Of a DNA stretch of 64,000 nucleotides, positions 31,972 through 43,554 are shown one piece after another. Source of the DNA: Nitrospirota bacterium (lineage in GTDB: Bacteria > Nitrospirota > Nitrospiria > Nitrospirales > Nitrospiraceae); assembly GCA_963703955.1 (NCBI GenBank), contig CAVPGK010000012.1, forward strand, positions 64,001 through 128,000, read 5' to 3'. The translations under genes were made by a program, and so were the position numbers. The notes beneath the pieces were generated by a model. The model did no database searches. It saw nothing but the letters and a program-made list of their open reading frames with translations, and was not told the origin of the DNA. Each line of letters opens with the position of its first letter. The first letter of the stretch is position 1.

Positions 31972-33750
31972 TTACATTTTACCCTTCCTCTTGTTTGCCC
32001 TGCGAGTAAGTATCCACCCTTCCAGCACCACGACGCCTACTGCGATTAGTGTTGGATAAATATACGTCTCCTTGGGAATCGGCGGCTCTAACACCGTATA
32101 GTAGAAGGCCGACACCGCCATCTTTCGACCAACATCACCGTTGTGGCCATCCCACACGAAGAAGACTGAGGGGATATACTTGCCTGATTCAAAGTAGGTG
32201 TCTTCGTCGTAGTCCGCCTTTAATGGCCGCTGGACGATAAGGGTCCAAAGACCGTCTTTCCATTCGGCCTTGAGGAGTTTCAGCTTCTCGGTGTAGTCAT
32301 CACGTTCCTCAAAGTCCTGATCCCAACCCGTGCCCTTGAATGCTCTCAGCGAACCATCGGCGTCCCACTTCACGATATCGACCGAGTACTTCTGATCTCC
32401 CCACAGAAACCGTGGCTTCTCCGGAGGAGGCAGCTCCTGCCACTTCACGGGGAACTCCATTGCAAATGCATCATTGTAGACGGTGTATTTGTTCTGGTTG
32501 GCTGCGATCGATTCAGGCTCACCGGTCTTGGGCGCCTGCTCCTTGATTCCATATTCATCCAAATTCACTTCCATCGGCTGGAACGGTAGTTTCCCTTCCG
32601 CAACGCTCTTTGACCGATCTTCCCACCGGAACATGAAGGCAATGTGCTTGTCGTTGTACAGGGACTTCACCCACATGTCGTCGATTCGGTTCACAAAGTT
32701 ACGCGGCTTGTGGGTGATCTGCCCGCCAAGGGCCACTAAACGACGCTCTTGTTTCTGCCACATTTCACTCTCTGGATCGTCCGAGATCTCACCTTCGATT
32801 GGACTGGACTTGAGGACGAAGCTGATCTTCGGCTTGTCCGTCAAAGGATCGATTGGAAGCGGCTCTCCCTTCGCGTCGCGCTCACACAGTGATTGGACGA
32901 AGTTGGCAATATGCCACCGCTCTTCAACTGTGGTGTTGTCAGCGAACGACGGCATCGGCGTCCCGTTCACACCGGTCGAAAAGGTCCGGAAAATATTTTT
33001 CACGTTGTACGCATCCTGGCGGCTCCCTCTAAAGTTCCAGCACTTGTGCCAACTGGCCGGCTGGATGGGAAAGCCCCAGTCATCCTTCAAATTAAAGGCG
33101 TTTCCATCTCCACGCCCATTGACTCCATGGCACTCGATACATTTCTTGTCGACAACGAGCTGTGCGCCTTTCTCAATACTCTCTTTGGTCGGCGGGATCA
33201 CTTTCATGCTATCCAACTGAAGAACGGTCTGAGTTTCCGTTGCTTGGTCATCAAACTTCCGATCCTTCACAAGCTGCGACGTGACAAATGAAAGCACCTG
33301 AAGACGCTGTTCCTCCGACAGAATACCTTCCCATGACGGCATGGCTGATCCAGGCAGCCCGTGCGTGACGGTTTCAAACAGGTCATTCTGACCTGGGATG
33401 GGCTTCTTCGCATCGAAGAGCGGTAACTCTCCACTTGCCGTATGCCGGATCTTAAAGGTCCCCTGATTGAAATTGCGCGGGCGTGGCCACAGGCGATCGG
33501 CTGCCGGGCCGTCTCCCGCTCCATCAACCCCATGACACCAGACACACTTGGTAAAATACACGCGCTTGCCGGCCTCAATCATCTCCGCGGGAGGCAGGGG
33601 AGCCAGATCCCCTTTCTTGAAGCCCTCGGGAAGCCCGGAGCCACCTTCCTGGGCAAAGATTGACGGGCCTGTGCTACCCGAAACCATGATGACGCTCAGC
33701 GCGACGATCACGATCAAGAGCGGCTGAGTCTTAAACCGAAAGTACCTCAT
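31972..33750 (-). CDS. Membrane-anchored diheme cytochrome c fused to a DMSO-reductase gamma-like domain (alternative NxrC candidate)
   Basis: Signal peptide, CVWCH, CIECH, LGGQIT...FRWED...FFVWDG domain, C-terminal TM helix. Confidence 0.82.
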   Translation of the reverse strand: MRYFRFKTQPLLIVIVALSVIMVSGSTGPSIFAQEGGSGLPEGFKKGDLAPLPPAEMIEAGKRVYFTKCVWCHGVDGAGDGPAADRLWPRPRNFNQGTFKIRHTASGELPLFDAKKPIPGQNDLFETVTHGLPGSAMPSWEGILSEEQRLQVLSFVTSQLVKDRKFDDQATETQTVLQLDSMKVIPPTKESIEKGAQLVVDKKCIECHGVNGRGDGNAFNLKDDWGFPIQPASWHKCWNFRGSRQDAYNVKNIFRTFSTGVNGTPMPSFADNTTVEERWHIANFVQSLCERDAKGEPLPIDPLTDKPKISFVLKSSPIEGEISDDPESEMWQKQERRLVALGGQITHKPRNFVNRIDDMWVKSLYNDKHIAFMFRWEDRSKSVAEGKLPFQPMEVNLDEYGIKEQAPKTGEPESIAANQNKYTVYNDAFAMEFPVKWQELPPPEKPRFLWGDQKYSVDIVKWDADGSLRAFKGTGWDQDFEERDDYTEKLKLLKAEWKDGLWTLIVQRPLKADYDEDTYFESGKYIPSVFFVWDGHNGDVGRKMAVSAFYYTVLEPPIPKETYIYPTLIAVGVVVLEGWILTRRANKRKGKM

Positions 33751-33779: not shown

Positions 33780-34733
33780 TTAATCCCAAGTCCTTGGATA
33801 ATAACCAGTGTGCCAATATTCAAACATCACGACCTTCCAGATCTCGTCCGTGGTCAGGTGCTGCTCCCAAGGCGGCATGACTGAGGCCCACGGGAACCCC
33901 TCGCGAGGCAATCCAATTCCACCCTTTGAGACGCGCCAAAAGATGAAGGTTTCTTGGAGCTGAGCAATCGTCCCTGGGTCGGTGAAATTCGCAGGAATAG
34001 GATTGAACGCAAAGGCATGCAGACCACGGCCGTTCAGGTTGTCACCATGACAGAAGTGACAATTCTGAAAGAAGATCTCTCCGCCCTCGCGAACGTACTT
34101 GAGATAGCCTTCCGCTTTCGGATCCCACGGATTGGCATCGGGTTTCAGCAAGCGGCCCATGCTCTGCTCGACAATGCGAGCATTGGTATAGTCCTGGTCG
34201 TATTTCCCTTCTCCGTTGACACGAAATGGGTTCGAGGATGTCTGCAGTACAAAGGTCTTCCCATGCACCTTCGTGCTCGCCGGAGGCGCCGGGTGGACCG
34301 TTCTCAATTCGATTGGTTCTTCGAGGTTCGGGAGAAATGAGTTGTAGGAAAACGCCCAAAACACGAAGGGCAGGATAATCAGATATCCCCATTTTAAAGC
34401 CTTATGGAACCCTGTCTTGCCATCCAAAACATTCAAGATAGGTTGCTTGAATTTCCTCCAATCTTCCTCGTTGCTGGACATCCACATGAAGACCGCGATC
34501 ATCGTGACGAAGCCATACATGGCGCGCACGCTGAACGGGATCGGGGGATAGATCCTGTACTTGAGGTACAACAGGATGAAGGCCACGAATCCGATCCCTT
34601 GCCACAGTCTTGGAATCCCCAGTCCACTCTTGTTGAGCAGATGACTGACGAGCGCAAACACGGCCACGCAGACTGCCAGCTCGAAGAGCATTTGCATCGG
34701 CATGTAACCTTCAACTAACTTCAAGGACGTCAT
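33780..34733 (-). CDS. Membrane-bound monoheme cytochrome c
   Basis: About four N-terminal TM segments, CHFCH, distal SVMPPW. Confidence 0.85.
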   Translation of the reverse strand: MTSLKLVEGYMPMQMLFELAVCVAVFALVSHLLNKSGLGIPRLWQGIGFVAFILLYLKYRIYPPIPFSVRAMYGFVTMIAVFMWMSSNEEDWRKFKQPILNVLDGKTGFHKALKWGYLIILPFVFWAFSYNSFLPNLEEPIELRTVHPAPPASTKVHGKTFVLQTSSNPFRVNGEGKYDQDYTNARIVEQSMGRLLKPDANPWDPKAEGYLKYVREGGEIFFQNCHFCHGDNLNGRGLHAFAFNPIPANFTDPGTIAQLQETFIFWRVSKGGIGLPREGFPWASVMPPWEQHLTTDEIWKVVMFEYWHTGYYPRTWD

Positions 34734-34778: not shown

Positions 34779-36086
34779 CTAGATTTTCGGTGGCTCCTTC
34801 CCTTCCTCGATCTGTGACAGATAGTCCACTATCTTGTTGAGGGCTCCGGCGCTGAGCTTCTGCCCGAAGATCTTGGGCATCACACCGTCTTGGAATGGCT
34901 TGACCACGTATACGCTCGGGGCAATCACAGATTCAGTAATATATTCGCGCACCGTCTTGGCGGCCCCTTTGTAGCCGGGGTCTTTCAAGCGACTCGGCGC
35001 ATTGGTTTTTTCTACCAGCTTCGGACCGACGGTTCCCATGGCTCCAGGGATGCCGGGAATCGTATGGCAGACAATGCACTGAGCCTTCGCGAAAATTTGA
35101 TCGGTCGGCTCCGAGCCGTCAGCCAACAGCCCACCCCCTCCGGCGGCAGGTTTATCCTCTGTCTGCTTCGGACGATCGGCTTCAGGGATGAATTTCTCGT
35201 AGGCTTTGACGATCTCCTCGTAGCTTGGCGCATCTTTTCCTTCGCGGACATACATCCAGGTATCCACAGCCGCCAACTCGCCCAGCGACAACGATATGGG
35301 TGGTTTATGGATAGCCGGCATCGGGCTCTCTTTATCATTCGTCCCTTTCGTGCCGAATCCAGCTACGACATAGCAACTCGGACACGCGTGCGATTCAGAA
35401 ATGTATTCCTGCGCATTCTCAGCAGTCCCGGCACCGGGAAAAGATTCTTTTTGAGCAGAGTCGCGATCTTGCGGTTTACCCTTGTGATAACGGGCATCTT
35501 CGATCTGCTGCTTGGATCGATCCGGAATCCCGAACAGGTTCGGAGCACGTTCACTTAAAAAGCCCTGGTTGAATCCATGGCAGAGGGGACACTGTCCCTT
35601 GCCGATCGCCCCTTGCACCGCGCTCTGACCGATCCCGCCGAAGATAATCTTTTCCCCTTCATCAGCAAGCTGCTGGGCCGACATGCTCCCGAAATCCAGC
35701 TTCACCTCAGGTGGAGGAAACCCGCCTTCGACCTGGGGCAACCAATTGCCATAGCCGGAAAGCCCGGCGGCCACAAGAAACATGAATCCGCCGATCTTGA
35801 AGAGAGCGCCCACACTGGAGAAATACAGGCCCATCATAAAGGCGAGCGCTGTAATCATGAAGAGAGAAACGGGCAAGAGACGAGAATTACCAAAAAAGTT
35901 GATTTGGTAATTGGCAATCGCCATGAGCAACATGACTGTGGCGATCATACCGATGAAGGTCTTAAAAATGGCGCGCTTCTTTAGCGCCGGGTCTTCAATG
36001 CTGACCTGGAAGTAGACAATCAAACCTAAGAGTAGGACCAAAATCGGCCAACCGAGATCAAGCGCTGCCCCCAGTAACTCCGCCAC
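34779..36086 (-). CDS. Membrane-bound diheme cytochrome c
   Basis: About four N-terminal TM segments, CPLCH and CIVCH in two repeated domains. Confidence 0.85.
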   Translation of the reverse strand: MAELLGAALDLGWPILVLLLGLIVYFQVSIEDPALKKRAIFKTFIGMIATVMLLMAIANYQINFFGNSRLLPVSLFMITALAFMMGLYFSSVGALFKIGGFMFLVAAGLSGYGNWLPQVEGGFPPPEVKLDFGSMSAQQLADEGEKIIFGGIGQSAVQGAIGKGQCPLCHGFNQGFLSERAPNLFGIPDRSKQQIEDARYHKGKPQDRDSAQKESFPGAGTAENAQEYISESHACPSCYVVAGFGTKGTNDKESPMPAIHKPPISLSLGELAAVDTWMYVREGKDAPSYEEIVKAYEKFIPEADRPKQTEDKPAAGGGGLLADGSEPTDQIFAKAQCIVCHTIPGIPGAMGTVGPKLVEKTNAPSRLKDPGYKGAAKTVREYITESVIAPSVYVVKPFQDGVMPKIFGQKLSAGALNKIVDYLSQIEEGKEPPKI

Positions 36087-36158: not shown

Positions 36159-38096
36159 TTAGTGAGCTGGCTCCGGAGCCCCTCCAGGAACCGGAGCTTT
36201 CGCTCCAACGGGCGCCTTCTTGGCCGCAAGCGTTCCGAGCCAGAAGACGAACATAATGCTGATCCAGAAGAAGAGTACGTTGAACGAGATCATATTGGCC
36301 CCGAATCCAACCGTATGGGTATAGGCCCATGGGGAATTGTCACGCATGATCTCATTGACGTGCCAGAACAGACGGACCGACGACCGAATGTATCCCATCA
36401 ATCCCATCATCCACGTAAATGCCGTCGCGAGCATGATGATCGCATACTGAGACCGGACCGAAATCTTCCCCCACTGAATTGGCCCGATCTCCTTGGCGCC
36501 TTTCAGCATAGCGATATTGAGCGCCGTCATGAAGAACAGACAGGAGAGCGTTGTCGCCACTTGGGGAACAGAGAGACCCACACGCACGTTTGCAGGAATG
36601 TAGTACCCGTAGATGGCGAGCCAGACAATATTCACGTAGGCCAAGAAGAAGAAACAGCCCATGAAAATATTCCCGAACTTCGCCCAGGATACAGCCGGTA
36701 TTTTGTTTCCTCGCTGATACCAAATGAAGCTCAGCACGGTTGTGGTGATAATCACATTGATGCCGCCGTTCTTGGCTGACATCACACCGTAATTACCCAA
36801 CACAGGGTGCTGCTGGCCGCCCATCGCCTTCAGCTCGGCCGGGGTCATCACGATCGTGTGCGGCGTAATAAAGACCAAGAATCCGCAGACCAGAATAAAC
36901 ACGAAATACTTGATCCAACGCTGGAACCGCTCTGCTCCGGTCATCCGGCCCAGTGCCTGCCACAGATAGTAGTTCGTGCTCAGGAACAGAATGCCGATCA
37001 TGGTGGCCTGGATAATAAAGAGCCACGCAAGCAAGCCACCCATCAGCGTAATGCCCATCTGTTGGCGGTAGGCATAGACCTCGCGCATCAACCAGTAACC
37101 TGCGAACGGAAGAGGAATGAGGAATGCCACACCGAGGGACATCGCGATATAGCCCATCCAGTCATAATGGGCGCGCTCCTCATCGTTCTTCGCGGACAAG
37201 AAACGATACGCGGCGTAGGCCGCGACCACGCCGCCCCCGAAGGCCATGTTTCCGAGGATACGGTGCACGTTCAGCGGATTCCAGAGAGCGGTATGAATAA
37301 CGTGCCAAATGTTGCCCAAGAAACGTCCCTGTTCATCCACGCCCGCCGGGGACATCATGAACCCGATCCAGGAATTGGCAAGCATCATCAACAGGGTGCC
37401 GATCACGTTGAGAATGACCGACATGCTCAAATGGACCCACTTCAACAGCCCCTCCTTCATCTTGTCCCAACCGTAATAGTAGATGTAGAGGGTTCCGCTC
37501 TCAGCCACGAACGTGAGCGCGTAGATGTGCATGACCGGGCGGAAGATACTCGACAGATACCCAAAGAAGGCCGGATAGAGCGTCAAGAACGTAAAGATCA
37601 GGATGCCGCCCAGAATAGCTGTTAAGGAATACGCGGTCAGGCTGATCTTGATGAAGTCATAGGCGAGCTGATCGTACTTCTTCGCCATCGCTTTATCCTT
37701 CGTCACCATACCCATGAACTCAATCACCATGCAGAAAATGGGGACCGCAAGAACAAAGCTGCCGTAGTAGAGGTGCTGTTGGTTCGCAAACCAGAGAAGC
37801 ACGCGACTCTCAAAGTTGTAACGGGGATAATCTTTGGGGCCGTCGGTGGTCTTCGGCGCCGGCGCCCCGGACACAATCCCTTCGGTCTTATAGTAGACGT
37901 CGCGAGACTTCTCGACCTTCTTCTCCGGCTCGGCGCCTGCCTTTTTGGCCACATCAGGAGGAGGGCCCCCGGCCGTCTCGCCCCCTCCACCGCTGGCAAG
38001 CGCAGGAATCGAAACAATGACCGGGAGCAGCAGAAGGCCGATCATTGCGCTCAACGCCATAATTGACAGCGTCTTCTTACGGGTTAAACTACCCAT
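36159..38096 (-). CDS. Cytochrome bd-like oxidase subunit I (CydA-like), copy 1
   Basis: QQHLYYGSFVL, FVAESG, ANSWIGFMMSPAG, NVHRILGN, GYIRSSVRLFW; many TM helices; GGAGG RBS. Confidence 0.85.
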   Translation of the reverse strand: MGSLTRKKTLSIMALSAMIGLLLLPVIVSIPALASGGGGETAGGPPPDVAKKAGAEPEKKVEKSRDVYYKTEGIVSGAPAPKTTDGPKDYPRYNFESRVLLWFANQQHLYYGSFVLAVPIFCMVIEFMGMVTKDKAMAKKYDQLAYDFIKISLTAYSLTAILGGILIFTFLTLYPAFFGYLSSIFRPVMHIYALTFVAESGTLYIYYYGWDKMKEGLLKWVHLSMSVILNVIGTLLMMLANSWIGFMMSPAGVDEQGRFLGNIWHVIHTALWNPLNVHRILGNMAFGGGVVAAYAAYRFLSAKNDEERAHYDWMGYIAMSLGVAFLIPLPFAGYWLMREVYAYRQQMGITLMGGLLAWLFIIQATMIGILFLSTNYYLWQALGRMTGAERFQRWIKYFVFILVCGFLVFITPHTIVMTPAELKAMGGQQHPVLGNYGVMSAKNGGINVIITTTVLSFIWYQRGNKIPAVSWAKFGNIFMGCFFFLAYVNIVWLAIYGYYIPANVRVGLSVPQVATTLSCLFFMTALNIAMLKGAKEIGPIQWGKISVRSQYAIIMLATAFTWMMGLMGYIRSSVRLFWHVNEIMRDNSPWAYTHTVGFGANMISFNVLFFWISIMFVFWLGTLAAKKAPVGAKAPVPGGAPEPAH

Positions 38097-38179
38097 GACT
38101 CCCTCCTTCAACAGTCGATGATGTTCTTCTGTAAGAGCACGGTTGAAACAGCAATAATCGGAACCTATGCGATGATGAT

Positions 38180-38302
38180 CTACTTCCTGAACAGATACCA
38201 ATAATCCAATCCCTGCATATCCATCAGGAAGTGATCGACCAGAGTAAAATAGACCAGAGAGATAGCCAATGACACGACGACGTATAACACTGTCTTTCCC
38301 AT
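38180..38302 (-). CDS. 40-aa single-helix membrane microprotein (not in the ORF track)
   Basis: Hand translation MGKTVLYVVVSLAISLVYFTLVDHFLMDMQGLDYWYLFRK; G-rich RBS; co-oriented inside the operon. Confidence 0.7.
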   Translation of the reverse strand: MGKTVLYVVVSLAISLVYFTLVDHFLMDMQGLDYWYLFRK

Positions 38303-38350
38303 ACTGCGCCCCCCGATTAATTTAATTAGGCCGACGAACCGATACCTGTC

Positions 38351-38470
38351 CTAGCAAGGGCACTGGATTCCGGCAAACCAGTAAAAAAACCACAAACTAA
38401 CCGCGCACGTGGCATAGAAAATCATCTTCCCGATCTTGATCTTGATATCACTCTGAGCTACCGCTTCCAT
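38351..38470 (-). CDS. 39-aa single-helix membrane microprotein ending in CPC (not in the ORF track)
   Basis: Hand translation MEAVAQSDIKIKIGKMIFYATCAVSLWFFYWFAGIQCPC; AAGGAG RBS; first ORF after the promoter. Confidence 0.72.
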   Translation of the reverse strand: MEAVAQSDIKIKIGKMIFYATCAVSLWFFYWFAGIQCPC

Positions 38471-38612
38471 TTCATCTCCTTGCCGAAACCGTCGAATAGG
38501 TTAGAGCTGCTTAACCTCAACATTTCTTGACAGATTTGGACGGGTATGTTACCTATTTCTTTCTGTTAGGTAAAAAGGGCGGAACATGAAGAAAAATTCA
38601 AAATTGTTCGAC

Positions 38613-38641
38613 ATTATAGTTTTGGCAGGAATGGTTGTCAA
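38613..38641 (-). promoter_or_regulatory. Consensus sigma70 promoter of the microprotein/bd-like oxidase operon
   Basis: Exact TTGACA-N17-TATAAT on the minus strand in an AT-rich intergenic region. Confidence 0.85.
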
Positions 38642-38660
38642 TATAATTTTGGCCGTGTTC

Positions 38661-39596
38661 CTAATCCTCTACTACTTTGATTTTCTTTGATTTTTCTACG
38701 ATTTTTTCCTCCTGAGCCGAGGCAGCGGCCAGGCCTCCATCGCGCGCAGAAACCGCACACCGAAAGCCGATAGTTTCATCACGGAAATCGGGAACCATCC
38801 GACTACGGCTTGTGATCCTGATATCGGTGCCGGTACTCGTGTATCCTCCCCCCCTGAGGACCTTAAACACGCCATGATCCGGTCCGTTAGGACTCTTATC
38901 AGTTGGAACGCGATAGGCATCTTCTGCGTACCAATCCGCCACCCATTCCATGACATTCCCTGCGCCGTCCGCGACACGAAACGGGCTGACGTCGCGTTGA
39001 AACGATCCCACCGGAGCGGTTACATCGAATCCATCCCGCGCAGAGTTCCAGTTTGAAGCCGTATAGTCGGGGTCATGTCCCCACGGCCACAACCGTCCAT
39101 CTGTTCCACGCATAGCCTTCTCCCATTCGGCTTCGGTTGGAAGACGCTTCCCTTTCCACCGACAATACGCATCCGCATCCTCCCACGACACATAGGTGAC
39201 CGGCTGGTTGACCCCGGACATCCGCGAGAGATTCTTGGCATATCGTGAAGGCGGAGCCGCTTTGCGATGGCCTGTCGCCGTTACGAAGGCCTGGTACTGA
39301 TGAGTCGTCACTTCGAAGCGGTCAATCGAAAACGCATCGAGGTAGATCTTCCGTTCTGGCTGCTCATCGTACCCCCCGACCATGGTCCCACGGATAAACG
39401 GACCTGCGGGGATCAGAACCATCTCTTCTTGAACAGGTGTGTCTTGTGCAGAGACGGGCGAAGATTCGCCTGAGGATTCCGAAAGCGATGGTTCCATCGG
39501 CGGCGGCGTGGTGCCTTTGAGAATCCCCATGACCGGCAAACTGGCCATGAAGAGCACGACCAGGAGGAAGGCGATTTTGAATTTCGTCTCTAGCAT
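38661..39596 (-). CDS. FGE-sulfatase (SUMF1/EgtB/PvdO) fold protein
   Basis: IDRFEVT, PVTYVSWEDADAYC, RLPTEAEWEKA, GNVMEWV, RGG, IGFRCA. Confidence 0.88.
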   Translation of the reverse strand: MLETKFKIAFLLVVLFMASLPVMGILKGTTPPPMEPSLSESSGESSPVSAQDTPVQEEMVLIPAGPFIRGTMVGGYDEQPERKIYLDAFSIDRFEVTTHQYQAFVTATGHRKAAPPSRYAKNLSRMSGVNQPVTYVSWEDADAYCRWKGKRLPTEAEWEKAMRGTDGRLWPWGHDPDYTASNWNSARDGFDVTAPVGSFQRDVSPFRVADGAGNVMEWVADWYAEDAYRVPTDKSPNGPDHGVFKVLRGGGYTSTGTDIRITSRSRMVPDFRDETIGFRCAVSARDGGLAAASAQEEKIVEKSKKIKVVED

Positions 39597-39620: not shown

Positions 39621-40535
39621 TCAAGGGGCATTCTGATGATCCGATGAATCCGCGCTCTTCGCGCAGCGAATGCCGATCGTGCTGTCGGTTCGCCACATCT
39701 TGGCCTGGAATCGTTTCGAGAGCCGCGCATTATGCTGGGTTTCACGCCAGGAACCGCCACGGATGACCTTGTGCTGTCCGTGATCAGGCCCCTTTGGGTC
39801 CCGAAACGGGGTCTTTTGATAATATTGCTCGCCGTACGTATCAGCCACCCACTCGGCCACATTCCCCGTCATGTCATAGACGCCATACGGGCTTCGGCCG
39901 GATTCAAAGGAACCCGGAGGGGCTAGATACTTAAATCCATCTTCGTCGCTATCGACGTTGGCATGGCCCGATCCGAATTCGTCGCCCCAGGGGTATCGCC
40001 GCCTACCTTCTCCCCGTCCCGCTTTCTCCCATTCCGCTTCTGTCGGCAACCGCTTTCCAGCCCACATGCAATAGGCTTCGGCGTCCCCCCAGGACATACC
40101 CATCGCGGGCAGCTCGGGTTTCAGAATGAGCGACTGATCATCCTCGAACACAGGCACAAACGGCTTGCCCCGCTTGGTCATGCGTACGAAGCGATCGTAC
40201 TCAGCCTGCGTCACTTCCTTCTTATCGATGTAGTAGGCGGTGAGAAACACCTGATGCTCCGGGGTTTCATCCGGGTCGCCTTCTTTGCTCCCCATGATGA
40301 ATGGCCCTTCCGGAATCTCCACCATTTCGCGCCCATCATCGCCGACACTCGTCTTGTACATGGAAAAATCGCGAGGAGCGACCACCGAGGCCGGCTTTTT
40401 CTCGGTCACAATCGAAGCCACGAGTTCTCGCTGCTTCTTGGCTTTATAGGATTCGTAGACCAAGCCCACGATCATGAGGATAAATGAAGCAAACACGAAC
40501 ACGATCGACCCGATCAGGACACCTCGATTTTCCAT
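39621..40535 (-). CDS. FGE-sulfatase (SUMF1/EgtB/PvdO) fold protein, membrane anchored
   Basis: N-terminal TM helix, RLPTEAEWEKA, DMTGNVAEWV, RGGSW, IGIRCA. Confidence 0.88.
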   Translation of the reverse strand: MENRGVLIGSIVFVFASFILMIVGLVYESYKAKKQRELVASIVTEKKPASVVAPRDFSMYKTSVGDDGREMVEIPEGPFIMGSKEGDPDETPEHQVFLTAYYIDKKEVTQAEYDRFVRMTKRGKPFVPVFEDDQSLILKPELPAMGMSWGDAEAYCMWAGKRLPTEAEWEKAGRGEGRRRYPWGDEFGSGHANVDSDEDGFKYLAPPGSFESGRSPYGVYDMTGNVAEWVADTYGEQYYQKTPFRDPKGPDHGQHKVIRGGSWRETQHNARLSKRFQAKMWRTDSTIGIRCAKSADSSDHQNAP

Positions 40536-40996: not shown

Positions 40997-41656
40997 TTAG
41001 GGAGTAGAAACCGTGATCGGTCCAAAATCCACTTCGACACCAGGCCCGCCTAGCAACGAGATGCCCCACGCTTTTTCAGCGGGCTCATGCTTATGAATGC
41101 GCTTGAAGTCCTCATACGCATTCACCCGTTCCTCGATCCATTCCCCAATGGGCTGCGCTCCGCTTCGAAGCACGATCTCGGACGCTCCGAAGGTTCCGCC
41201 TTCGGTCATCGTCCCAATGACCTTCGTCGCACTCCACACATACTTGGTCGTTACCGGAATGAACATGAGGTCCGTATCCAAGGAGACAAACACTGCCGCA
41301 ATCGGGTCAGCCTCGGCCGGAGCCGATTTCAGTCTCCAACGCCAGGTGACGATCGGCGTGGCCTTGGGATCCCACCCAATTTTCTTGTAGACCCGCTGAT
41401 CGGCCGCTTTTGCCGTTAGGAAAAAGGGGGTCTCATGATCCGATTTGACGCTGTAGGCCTCTTTCGCTTTCGTCTCGCTCCGCTGGGCTCTCCAGCCGGC
41501 CGGAAATCCAAGTTCATCCCTGTCGTGGAAATCCTCCAACACCGTTTGACCTGCTTCTTGCGCGTTTGCGGGAAGCGGTCCGGCAGACAAAAAGACCATC
41601 AAAAAGACGAGGTAGAGCAGTCTCATTCGTCGTGACAGGAGCGGTCGCCACTTCAT
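40997..41656 (-). CDS. Exported protein, DUF3047-like
   Basis: Signal peptide, [31 protein letters not shown]. Confidence 0.7.
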
Positions 41657-43554
41657 GAAGGCTGCACCTCTTCAGAGGGAGATTGGATCAGGTTCGGTTG
41701 ATTCTCGGACGCGTGTTCCATGAGCGGAATGCGATGCTCATCTCTCCGGCTGATCCAAAATAATAGTAAGACGGCAAACCAGAAGACCACCATGTTGAAC
41801 GTCACCATCTTCGCGGCAAACCCGAGAGAGGGCGTGAAGGCCCATGGCGACACATCCGGCATGATCTCGTTCACGTGCCAAGACTGTCGTCCCGATGACC
41901 GGATATAGCCCATCAATCCCATCACCCATGTAAAGGAAGCTGCCAACGCAAACAAGGCCAGCATGCCTCGAGTGGAGATCTTTCCCCACTCAACCGGCCC
42001 GTGAATGATGGCCCCCCGCATCATGCTTCGATTCAATAAGAGCCCTCCGATGAGGACGGTGCACGTGGTAAAGGCCTGCGGCCAGGAGAGCCCCACCCGC
42101 ACACTCGCCGGTACGTAAAACCCATAGACCGCAAGCCAGATAATGTTGGCGATGCCGGTGCCGAAGAGAACCCCCAGCGCAATGTTTCCCGCGGAGGCCC
42201 AAGGGACGACCATTGTCCGGTTCGCTCGCCGATAGAAAAGATAGCTCAGCACCGTGAGGCAAATCATCACATTGATCGCCCCGTTCTTCGAGGACATCAC
42301 GCCATAATTCCCGATGACCGGATGCTGGGCCCCGCCCATGGCTTTGACTTCGCTCGCCGACATCACCAGGGTATGAGGGGTCAGCCAGACACAGAGACAC
42401 GCGATGAGGGCATACACCAAATACTTGAGATGATGCTGATATCGCTCCCCACCGCGGATTCGTCCCATGCTTTGCCACATATAGTAATTGACGCCCAAGA
42501 ACAATACCCCCACCAACAACGCCTGGACCACGAACAGCCAGGTCAGCAATCCCCCCATCATGGTCATGCCCATGCTCTGTCGGAACGCATAGACCGAGCG
42601 CATCAGCCAATAGCCGGCAAACGGCATCGGCAGCAGCGCACAGACGGTCACGAATAAGAAGACATACCCGACCCAGTCGTAGTAGGCGCGTTCGTCATCC
42701 GATCTGCTGGTTAGGAAACGGTACGAGGCGTATGCGATCACCACCGCTCCCCCCGACATCAAATCCGCCAAGAACCGGTGGACGTTGAGCGGGTTCCATA
42801 AGGCCGAATGCAGCAGGTGCCAGACATTGCCCAGGTAACGTCCGTGGTCGTCCACACCCGCCGGCGACATCATGAAGGCGGCCCAGGCATTCACCAGTAA
42901 GAGCAGTACGGCTCCGCATCCGTTCGCCACGACGCCGAGCGCGGCATGCACCCATTTTGACGCAGGTGTGCTGAGAGCGTCCCAACTGTAGTAGTACGCG
43001 ACCAGCAAGATCGTCTCGCCGAGGAAGACTAGGGCATAGAGGGGCATCATCGACTTGAAGGTGCCCCCCATGTAATTCATGAAGCTCGGGTAGAGCCCGA
43101 TAAACACACCCAGCATGATGCTGCCGACGACGGCCGTCAATGAAAGAGCCAGCAGCGCGACCTTCAGGAAATCGTGAGCCAGCCGGTCGTATCGTACCGC
43201 AGTGGACCGGTCTCGCGTGATCAGTCCCACAAACTCGATAATCACGCAGAAGATCGGCAGCGCGAGGACAAAGCCGCCGAAATACGTATGCTGCTGCGTC
43301 ACGAACCACAGCAGAATTCTGTTGTCCAGAGAGCCATAGCGCGGATAGACCATCGATTCCGAAGACGGCGCCGCCGGTCCGCTCGGTGTCCCGTTGGTCT
43401 TGTAATACACATCCTTGGCGGTTTGCGTCGCCTCGTGCGCAGACGTATCGATCGCCCCGCCTATGAAACCGATGAGGAGTACGGAGCAGAAGATCACCCG
43501 GACGATAGTCGGCATCATGACACCGCGTGCCCGCCTGCCCCGCAGCATCTCCAT
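41653..43554 (-). CDS. Cytochrome bd-like oxidase subunit I (CydA-like), copy 2
   Basis: Collinear paralog of 36159..38096: QQHTYFGGFVL, FMMSPAG, NVHRFLAD, GYIRSSGRQSW. Confidence 0.85.
   Translation of the reverse strand: MEMLRGRRARGVMMPTIVRVIFCSVLLIGFIGGAIDTSAHEATQTAKDVYYKTNGTPSGPAAPSSESMVYPRYGSLDNRILLWFVTQQHTYFGGFVLALPIFCVIIEFVGLITRDRSTAVRYDRLAHDFLKVALLALSLTAVVGSIMLGVFIGLYPSFMNYMGGTFKSMMPLYALVFLGETILLVAYYYSWDALSTPASKWVHAALGVVANGCGAVLLLLVNAWAAFMMSPAGVDDHGRYLGNVWHLLHSALWNPLNVHRFLADLMSGGAVVIAYASYRFLTSRSDDERAYYDWVGYVFLFVTVCALLPMPFAGYWLMRSVYAFRQSMGMTMMGGLLTWLFVVQALLVGVLFLGVNYYMWQSMGRIRGGERYQHHLKYLVYALIACLCVWLTPHTLVMSASEVKAMGGAQHPVIGNYGVMSSKNGAINVMICLTVLSYLFYRRANRTMVVPWASAGNIALGVLFGTGIANIIWLAVYGFYVPASVRVGLSWPQAFTTCTVLIGGLLLNRSMMRGAIIHGPVEWGKISTRGMLALFALAASFTWVMGLMGYIRSSGRQSWHVNEIMPDVSPWAFTPSLGFAAKMVTFNMVVFWFAVLLLFWISRRDEHRIPLMEHASENQPNLIQSPSEEVQPS

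Follow-up and report, generated by a model that had tools for sequence, protein, structure and literature searches.

The closest described systems are the microproteins of the canonical bd oxidases. According to the part of a review that we draw on here, CydX, CydS and AppX bind CydA via transmembrane helices (TMs) 1, 4, 5, 6 and 7 near haem b558, and they are needed for assembly, stability and activity. The same part of the review describes CydH (CydY, YnhF) as the product of an orphan gene outside the operon, which is lineage-restricted and binds between TM1 and TM9. With CydH as its second single-helix subunit, independent of the first, E. coli bd-I sets a precedent for a bd-type enzyme that carries two different microproteins. 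A survey of CydX reported it outside Proteobacteria in only two Leptospirillum species.

For the bd-like proteins of Nitrospira, the sections of Mundinger et al. (2019, PMC6606698) that concern the present genes describe a cluster in N. moscoviensis made up of bd-like_3, two cytochromes c and alt_NxrC_2 (NITMOv2_3640-3643), with bd-like_4 a few genes away. The cluster ranks within the top 40 gene sets of that organism by transcription, and its proposed role is to anchor nitrite oxidoreductase in the membrane or to feed reverse electron flow. The terminal oxidase proposed in the same sections is bd-like_2, which is different from bd-like_3. In the portion of the Murali et al. bioRxiv preprint that deals with the OR-N family, these enzymes are said to share with CydA the N-terminal helices and the His19-type ligand, to have no quinol site (Q-loop), to lie in operons with alternative electron donors and to occur as a/b paralogue pairs (OR-N3a/b) with about 50% similarity.

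We find the bd-like_3 cluster on the minus strand of the window (the whole 64-kb stretch of DNA that was analysed), and ahead of it lie two small ORFs, here called A and B. The features are as follows.

38351..38470, minus strand: ORF-A, 39 aa (MEAV...IQCPC), with the core KxGKxIFYxTCAVxLWFFYWFAGIQCPC-stop; predicted N-in/C-out single-pass protein
38476..38481, minus strand: Shine-Dalgarno AAGGAG of ORF-A, 5 nt 5' of the ATG, read from the sequence
38180..38302, minus strand: ORF-B, 40 aa (MGKT...LFRK), single-pass, with the conserved C-terminal motif LMDMQGLDYWYLFRK
38309..38314, minus strand: G-rich ribosome-binding stretch (G-run) of ORF-B, 6 nt 5' of the ATG, read from the sequence
36159..38096, minus strand: CydA-like "bd-like_3" protein, 645 aa, PF01654 at E 2e-20 over profile positions 2-241 of 418, putatively OR-N-type
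34779..36086, minus strand: cytochrome c gene (PF13442/PF00034), as in the cluster description
33780..34733, minus strand: second cytochrome c gene (PF13442/PF00034)
31972..33750, minus strand: protein with cytochrome c and EB_dh domains (PF00034, PF13442, PF09459), alt_NxrC_2-like, as in the cluster description
41653..43554, minus strand: paralogous bd-like gene, bd-like_4-like, 53% identical to bd-like_3, 3.5 kb upstream, with no micro-ORFs before it

This operon corresponds to the bd-like_3 / two cytochromes c / alt_NxrC_2 cluster already published for Nitrospira. Its downstream genes are the same as in N. moscoviensis, and the gap between bd-like_3 and the FGE-family gene measures 557 nt there and 564 nt here. 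It shows the OR-N trait of an alternative-donor operon (two cytochromes c and the cytochrome c/EB_dh protein) together with a paralogue 53% identical, and cydB is absent from it. We infer the OR-N3a/b label for the bd-like_3/bd-like_4-like pair from these traits, as a label and not as a phylogenetic placement. The original prediction spoke of a bd-like oxidase operon; the bd-like gene is indeed there, but the cluster is that of bd-like_3 and alt_NxrC_2 and not that of the proposed terminal oxidase bd-like_2.

The bd-like_3 protein is 70-95% identical across the order. Against solved structures it matches one CydA only (E 4.9e-6), in an alignment that spans residues 111-301. In the Pfam and PDB alignments H108 stands opposite the His19-type ligand. 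We read H222 as the likely counterpart of the conserved helix-IV His, a reading taken from residue offsets and not from an aligned column. H278 aligns with a His of the solved CydA in a low-confidence part of the alignment, and the pair H278-R279 is invariant; going by E. coli numbering, H278 is presumably the b558-type ligand.

As to the two ORFs themselves, the coordinates, the ribosome-binding sites, the hydropathy and the aromatic counts all agree with the original description of two minus-strand ORFs of 39 and 40 aa, each with one aromatic-rich helix. Each has a single hydrophobic stretch, with a best 19-aa Kyte-Doolittle window of 1.57 in A and 2.31 in B, and aromatic residues number 8/39 and 8/40, respectively. 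A GGAG-type motif stands 5' of A in most related loci, and the in-frame residues before the Met of B are G/R/E codons in most of them. The CydA-like gene starts 84 nt past B, and between the promoter and this gene there is no ORF longer than A or B. There are 18 ORFs of at least 20 aa within these 900 nt and 224 ATG-ORFs of 30-60 aa across the 64-kb window. Because ORFs of this size are so frequent by chance, the case for A and B rests on the comparison with other genomes. Judged from sequence comparison, it is through conservation and not through ORF size that the two stand above chance.

Among 61 genomes of the same order, A was matched in 57 and B in 55 at E <= 10, weak matches included. 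For A these are 33/36 in f1, 10/10 in f2, 9/9 in f3 and 4/5 in f4 (our labels for the families), and for B 32/36, 10/10, 8/9 and 4/5. Extra matches of B in relatives are weak, with E of at least 0.02. Removal of duplicates left 53 distinct Nitrospirales loci with both A and B; the order A, B, bd-like gene on the same strand is kept in 52 of them, and the 53rd is cut by a contig end. The spacer between A and B ranges from 19 to 257 nt across the loci, yet neither frame is interrupted and each ends at the same residues throughout. Five high-quality genomes of the family gave no match to A or B: in three (G008, G193, G027) the contig breaks exactly at the start of the bd-like gene, and in the other two (G185, G222) the bd-like orthologue is not assembled. 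Within the order we found no intact upstream region that is missing A and B.

The substitution pattern is that of protein-coding genes. In the core of A (27 codons), pairwise differences average 0.24/0.19/0.55 at codon positions 1/2/3, and in that of B (35 codons) they average 0.38/0.23/0.58, so that third positions are 2-3 times more variable than second positions. The cores have pN/pS of 0.26 (A) and 0.36 (B), with a median dN/dS over unsaturated pairs of 0.15 for A and 0.26 for B. When the full sequences are compared, pN/pS is 0.36 for A, 0.38 for B and 0.24 for the bd-like protein, values that come from different row sets. Synonymous sites of A and B are saturated (pS about 0.8). The original prediction had proposed frame conservation, synteny and dN/dS in related genomes as its check, and both the order in 52 of the 53 loci and the dN/dS values bear it out. 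Taken at the level of sequence, A and B are genuine genes, conserved as proteins under purifying selection and always linked to this operon. We infer further that they are translated, and that the products are single-pass membrane microproteins. By the positive-inside rule, the lysines N-terminal to each helix, and the KKK loop of a longer form of B described below, would put both conserved C-termini on the periplasmic side.

The original prediction also placed A and B first after a perfect promoter and directly 5' of the CydA-like gene, which is what we observe. The upstream features are these.

38585..38651, minus strand: conserved promoter block, -35 TTGACA at 38641..38636 and -10 TATAAT at 38618..38613
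38527..38551, minus strand: leader boxes TAACA and invariant TGTCAA; TGTCAA at 38532..38527 is the reverse complement of the -35 hexamer

The promoter is a 12/12 match to TTGACA-N17-TATAAT (sigma-70; 38641..38613, minus strand), 142 nt 5' of A and just past the stop of the FGE-family gene. A simple scan gave 3 promoter-like sites in 3.1 kb where 2.7 are expected. Among the related loci, 46 of 52 have the perfect 12/12 promoter, 110-207 nt 5' of A, where shuffled sequences reach a mean best of 8.06/12; the imperfect ones are the four f4 loci (9/12) and two others (8/12). This genome has 7 perfect N17 consensus promoters in total, and the present block is unique in it. The region is almost invariant across three families, including the 17-nt spacer and about 25 nt past the -10 (GTCGAACAATTTTGA...), and it looks like a regulator-binding promoter. 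The leader boxes, seen in alignments of 18 and of 46 leaders, follow about 85-95 nt downstream of the promoter region. The bd-like_3 operon begins with the cistrons A and B, which share its conserved promoter.

Upstream of this promoter lie tandem genes of the FGE-sulfatase family (38661..39596 and 39621..40535, minus strand), and the product of the first has a hydrophobic, signal-like N-terminus. An FGE-like gene stands just upstream of the operon promoter in 55/56 loci of f1-f5, whether A ends in CPC or in His. We considered a link between the CPC tail and the FGE gene and rejected it, since the gene is also found beside the lineages with His tails and the two do not co-vary.

Since A and B come early in the transcript, after a 142-nt leader that has conserved boxes, it could be argued that they are regulatory leader peptides (uORFs), such that the act of translation would control the bd-like operon. 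We give this hardly any credence. The amino acids are conserved while the synonymous sites are saturated, which is not the poor peptide conservation by which uORFs are recognised. Each product has a TM helix, invariant C-terminal motifs and its own ribosome-binding site, and neither a consensus RNA structure or attenuator (leader alignment) nor an Rfam match was found in the leader.

With respect to expression, the section of the supplement of PMC6606698 relevant here gives N. moscoviensis bd-like_3 an RPKM of 2645 (ranked 37th) and the upstream FGE-family gene one of 217. A rise of this kind across the gap fits a promoter between the FGE gene and bd-like_3. Contigs from metatranscriptome libraries span 38032-38344, taking in the whole of B together with the beginning of the bd-like gene, with 0 differences; from a relative, they span 38378-38552, which is most of A and the leader. 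All these contigs are to be read as presence only, and DNA carry-over is possible. RNA-library contig cover is absent between 38602 and 39024, a gap that is no guide to the transcript start.

Turning back to the known small subunits, A and B resemble CydX and AppX (E. coli bd-I and bd-II) and CydS (Geobacillus thermodenitrificans) in being about 30-40 aa long, in having a single TM helix and in being encoded with a cydA-type gene. They share no sequence similarity with CydX or CydS, however: neither matches a Pfam family at E <= 0.01, YbgT_YccB, the family of CydX/AppX, included. The profile of A finds no PDB chain at E <= 10, and that of B finds one chance-level match, a tRNA ligase, at E 2.1. 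The gene order differs too, since the CydX and CydS genes come after cydB whereas A and B come before the cydA-like gene. Their partner is putatively of OR-N type, with cytochromes c, without an operonic cydB and, going by the portions of the literature cited above, without a quinol loop, and in this it is unlike the partner of CydX and CydS. CydH is likewise without sequence match to A or B, and its orphan gene contrasts with the operonic gene of B. Hence A and B are analogues, not homologues, of CydX, CydS and CydH.

The A family has a short acidic/basic N-terminus followed by the core given above, up to the stop. G14, F18, F29 and W31 are invariant, and the terminal CPC is conserved in f1-f3. 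In the B family the helix is followed by (D/N)-(H/W/Y)-x-L-M-D-M-Q-G-L-D-Y-W-Y-L-F-R-K, with F19, M27, Q30, G31, L32, D33, Y36 and R39 invariant. The original prediction pointed to the CPC end of A and to a DH just after the helix of B. Both are present here, but the DH is not a conserved feature, because its His is confined to f1, with W or Y at this position in the families f2-f4. A longer B of 67-70 aa, with two helices and a conserved N-terminal NPxFW, is seen in some f1 genera and explains the database entries of 64-70 aa. Forms of B fused to another protein, which would have tied it to a partner, were not found among 42 longer proteins, all of 71-113 aa.

Cys or His residues occur in the post-helix tail of A in nearly all lineages: in place of CPC, the tail reads SSHSYGGH in f5 and SHGVKPGH, SHGVAPHE or THGVAPHHGG in other classes, and f9 is the exception, with neither Cys nor His. 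B has no metal-type residues conserved outside f4. Such a Cys/His tail is not known from CydX or CydS, a point in which A would differ from them. In f4 (L073-L076) the tail of A reads VVHH, B carries an extra 9-residue C-terminal tail ending in GGH, and in the bd-like protein His265 is changed to Leu with a new His at position 270. These changes in the A tail, the B tail and the bd-like loop look coordinated at the predicted periplasmic contact.

That contact comes from a prediction of the complex of the bd-like protein (26-row alignment) with B (23 rows) and A (31 rows), in which A was the scored partner. This too had been proposed with the original prediction, as a modelling run with the product of 36159..38096. 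A obtained an ipSAE of 0.75 (0.75, 0.73 and 0.75 in the separate runs), and the best of 3 controls obtained 0.00. The score mark of this prediction is reached by 116/157 solved complexes and by 2/215 mismatched pairs; at least 92% of contacts recur between runs, and pLDDT for the partner is 80 or higher. Unrelated natural proteins of 39 aa served as control partners; since these need not have been hydrophobic helices, a generic preference for TM helices is possible. Given that A has no PDB match and that the bd-like protein has a single CydA match at E 4.9e-6, the sequences make it unlikely that the model reproduces a memorised solved complex. A is thus predicted to bind the bd-like protein, where the score is a measure of model confidence.

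In the predicted model, residues 7-39 of A lie along residues 216-238 of the bd-like protein, which the Pfam and PDB alignments identify as helix IV. The face in contact with A (220/221, 223/224, 227/228, 231, 234/235, 238) has helical periodicity, and the predicted orientation agrees with the positive-inside rule, with KIKIGK on the N side. The tail of A (residues 36-39) is predicted to contact Y69, T71, N262, W264, H265, I267, H268, W272, N273 and N276, and the residues contacted by the tail lie in the periplasmic loop before H278-R279. The predicted placement along helix IV resembles that of the CydX-type subunits, which, as the relevant part of the review has it, also sit on CydA helices including TM4. 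It differs from the TM1/TM9 cleft of CydH in that the predicted site of A is helix IV and the loop that follows.

In our opinion A and B are probably accessory subunits of the bd-like_3 complex, specific to Nitrospirota and analogous to CydX/CydS and CydH. That they might be small subunits or assembly factors of a bd-like complex was the core of the original prediction, and it is supported by the synteny, the purifying selection, the shared promoter and, for A, by the controlled prediction of binding. One conserved consensus promoter would drive A, B, the CydA-like protein, the two cytochromes c and alt_NxrC_2, in this order. The hydrophobic helix would pack against the four helices that form the haem-binding core of the CydA-like subunit, which it would stabilise or tune. 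In the case of A, the N-terminus would be cytoplasmic, the helix would run along helix IV (216-238), and the QCPC tail would come to lie at the periplasmic face, against the conserved loop N262-W264-H265-I267-H268-W272-N273.

A more specific idea is that A is a cofactor-bearing subunit, whose periplasmic Cys/His tail would form, together with His265 and His268 in the loop that precedes helix V of the bd-like protein, an inter-subunit metal site or a haem axial ligand. We regard this as quite unlikely. To our knowledge no bd-type small subunit bears such a cofactor site. We saw no clear co-variation of bd-like residues with the CPC or His tail: six positions differ (Q143, I244, L433, F478, I554, I614), and there is no Cys, His or Met among them. 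Where A is absent, His265 and His268 are conserved all the same. If the idea were true, the site at the tail of A would determine where the NXR-linked bd-like_3 complex has its point of redox entry or exit.

The distribution of A and B outside the order bears on the subunit reading as well. When the profile of A was run on 301 genomes of the phylum, it matched 46/50 in f1, 24/24 in f2, 1/1 in f3 and 3/3 in f5, with weaker matches in f9, f14, f16 and f17. Nine of the weak-match loci were retrieved. In six, A-like and B-like ORFs are directly followed by an orthologue of bd-like_3 (47-64% identical); another runs into a contig end, and the remaining two have no such gene nearby, one of these being probably non-homologous. 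Diverged A/B pairs are therefore found 5' of the same bd-like gene in other classes of Nitrospirota. The A-like ORF at one locus (L100, G101:C3:3456-3593) is near-identical to its counterpart in a sister genome, and neither a B-like ORF nor a bd-like gene follows within 3.4 kb, perhaps owing to a rearrangement or to an artefact of assembly. A homologue of B that is 63% identical (P0096) is filed under Petrachloros mirabilis, a cyanobacterium-like name, and may reflect assembly contamination or transfer.

In the phylum of a Nitrospinae-labelled MAG, 75/81 genomes have a bd-like orthologue that is 59-64% identical. A and B were not detected in 30 loci fetched from that phylum (4 rows at E of at least 0.066 for the profile of A, none for that of B), and in 14 of these 30 inspected by eye nothing like A or B was seen. 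It follows that A and B are dispensable to the core enzyme in some lineages. The search was also extended to 80 loci of distant bd-like genes in many phyla (Entotheonella, Methylomirabilota/Rokubacteria, Gemmatimonadota, Acidobacteriota, Rhodothermales and others). It gave no significant match (3 rows at E 0.21-0.93 for A, none for B), and a conserved small TM ORF was not seen in 17 of these 80 on inspection by eye. Nor are there such micro-ORFs 5' of the other three bd-like paralogues in this genome. As they were not found outside Nitrospirota in the loci examined, A and B appear to be additions specific to this lineage, much as the canonical bd oxidases have small subunits of restricted range.

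The A family has a second, stand-alone type of member, with the sequence PEWExKLGKxIFY...WFFYWLNGIQCPC; its N-terminus is longer, and it shares the WFFYW...CPC end. In this genome it is found on another contig.

G000:C16:120396-120503 (L080, 4361..4507), plus strand: stand-alone A paralogue

It was found in 12 further loci, of which one is in this genome, and (L083-L094 among others) in many genomes of the family. Its neighbours differ from genome to genome, with no shared partner and no bd-like gene nearby; they include hemerythrin, response regulators, a MEDS domain protein, a transporter and an acyl-CoA synthetase. The A fold is thus in use outside the operon too, the A family need not be tied to bd-like_3 alone, and the notion of an exclusive tie is slightly weakened. 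B is single-copy in this genome (G000), without a paralogue.

These paralogues, together with the lack of homology to known families, might suggest that A and B are small membrane proteins with an unrelated role (a stress peptide, a toxin-like peptide or the regulator of another transporter) that merely share the promoter. We consider this highly improbable, given that the gene order beside the bd-like gene is invariant over family, order and class divergence while the spacers change, that B was never found elsewhere, its extra matches in relatives being weak, and that the prediction yields a specific interface.

It is also conceivable that A, B or both are transient, non-stoichiometric factors for assembly or cofactor insertion, which would, for example, hand over metal or haem at the periplasmic face. 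This, the chief rival to the subunit reading, we think unlikely, though it has several observations on its side: the tail of A is rich in Cys and His in nearly all lineages, the stand-alone paralogues could serve other complexes, the orthologous enzyme of the Nitrospinae-labelled phylum does without both, and an exported FGE-family gene is the constant upstream neighbour. On the other hand, the predicted helix-helix interface is long and confident, as is typical of a stable subunit. The two genes head a very highly expressed structural operon, a position that suggests stoichiometric amounts, and in B no metal-type residues are conserved outside f4. We thus retain accessory subunits as the preferred reading.

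The original prediction called the two microproteins hidden. This holds in part only. Both proteins are already present in many public genomes and metagenomes as "hypothetical protein", without a Pfam domain and in one source mislabelled DUF106 or YidC, and in the ESM Atlas they fall in unnamed "hypothetical protein" clusters only, with scores below 0.9. They are indeed hidden in the RefSeq-based expression table of N. moscoviensis, in the part of which that covers this cluster RS16745 (bd-like_3) is followed by RS16750 (FGE family) with no gene between, and the MicroScope genes 3644 and 3645 have no row. With no gene rows in the gap, that transcriptome could not report A or B. Our full-text literature searches returned no paper describing them; the passages of PMC6606698 on the cluster do not mention the two small genes, and those of PMC6606698, PMC12342949, PMC8115632 and the Murali preprint that deal with OR-N enzymes mention no small subunits for them.

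A large share of the nitrate formed in soils, waters and treatment plants is the work of Nitrospira and its relatives, and none of their bd-like membrane complexes has been purified or solved. Canonical bd oxidases, as the review states in the part used here, need CydX-type peptides for a stable, active enzyme. Proteomic, structural or heterologous-expression work that omits A and B may in the same way miss parts of the bd-like_3 complex, and the Cys/His tail of A would offer a concrete, testable handle on its cofactor content.
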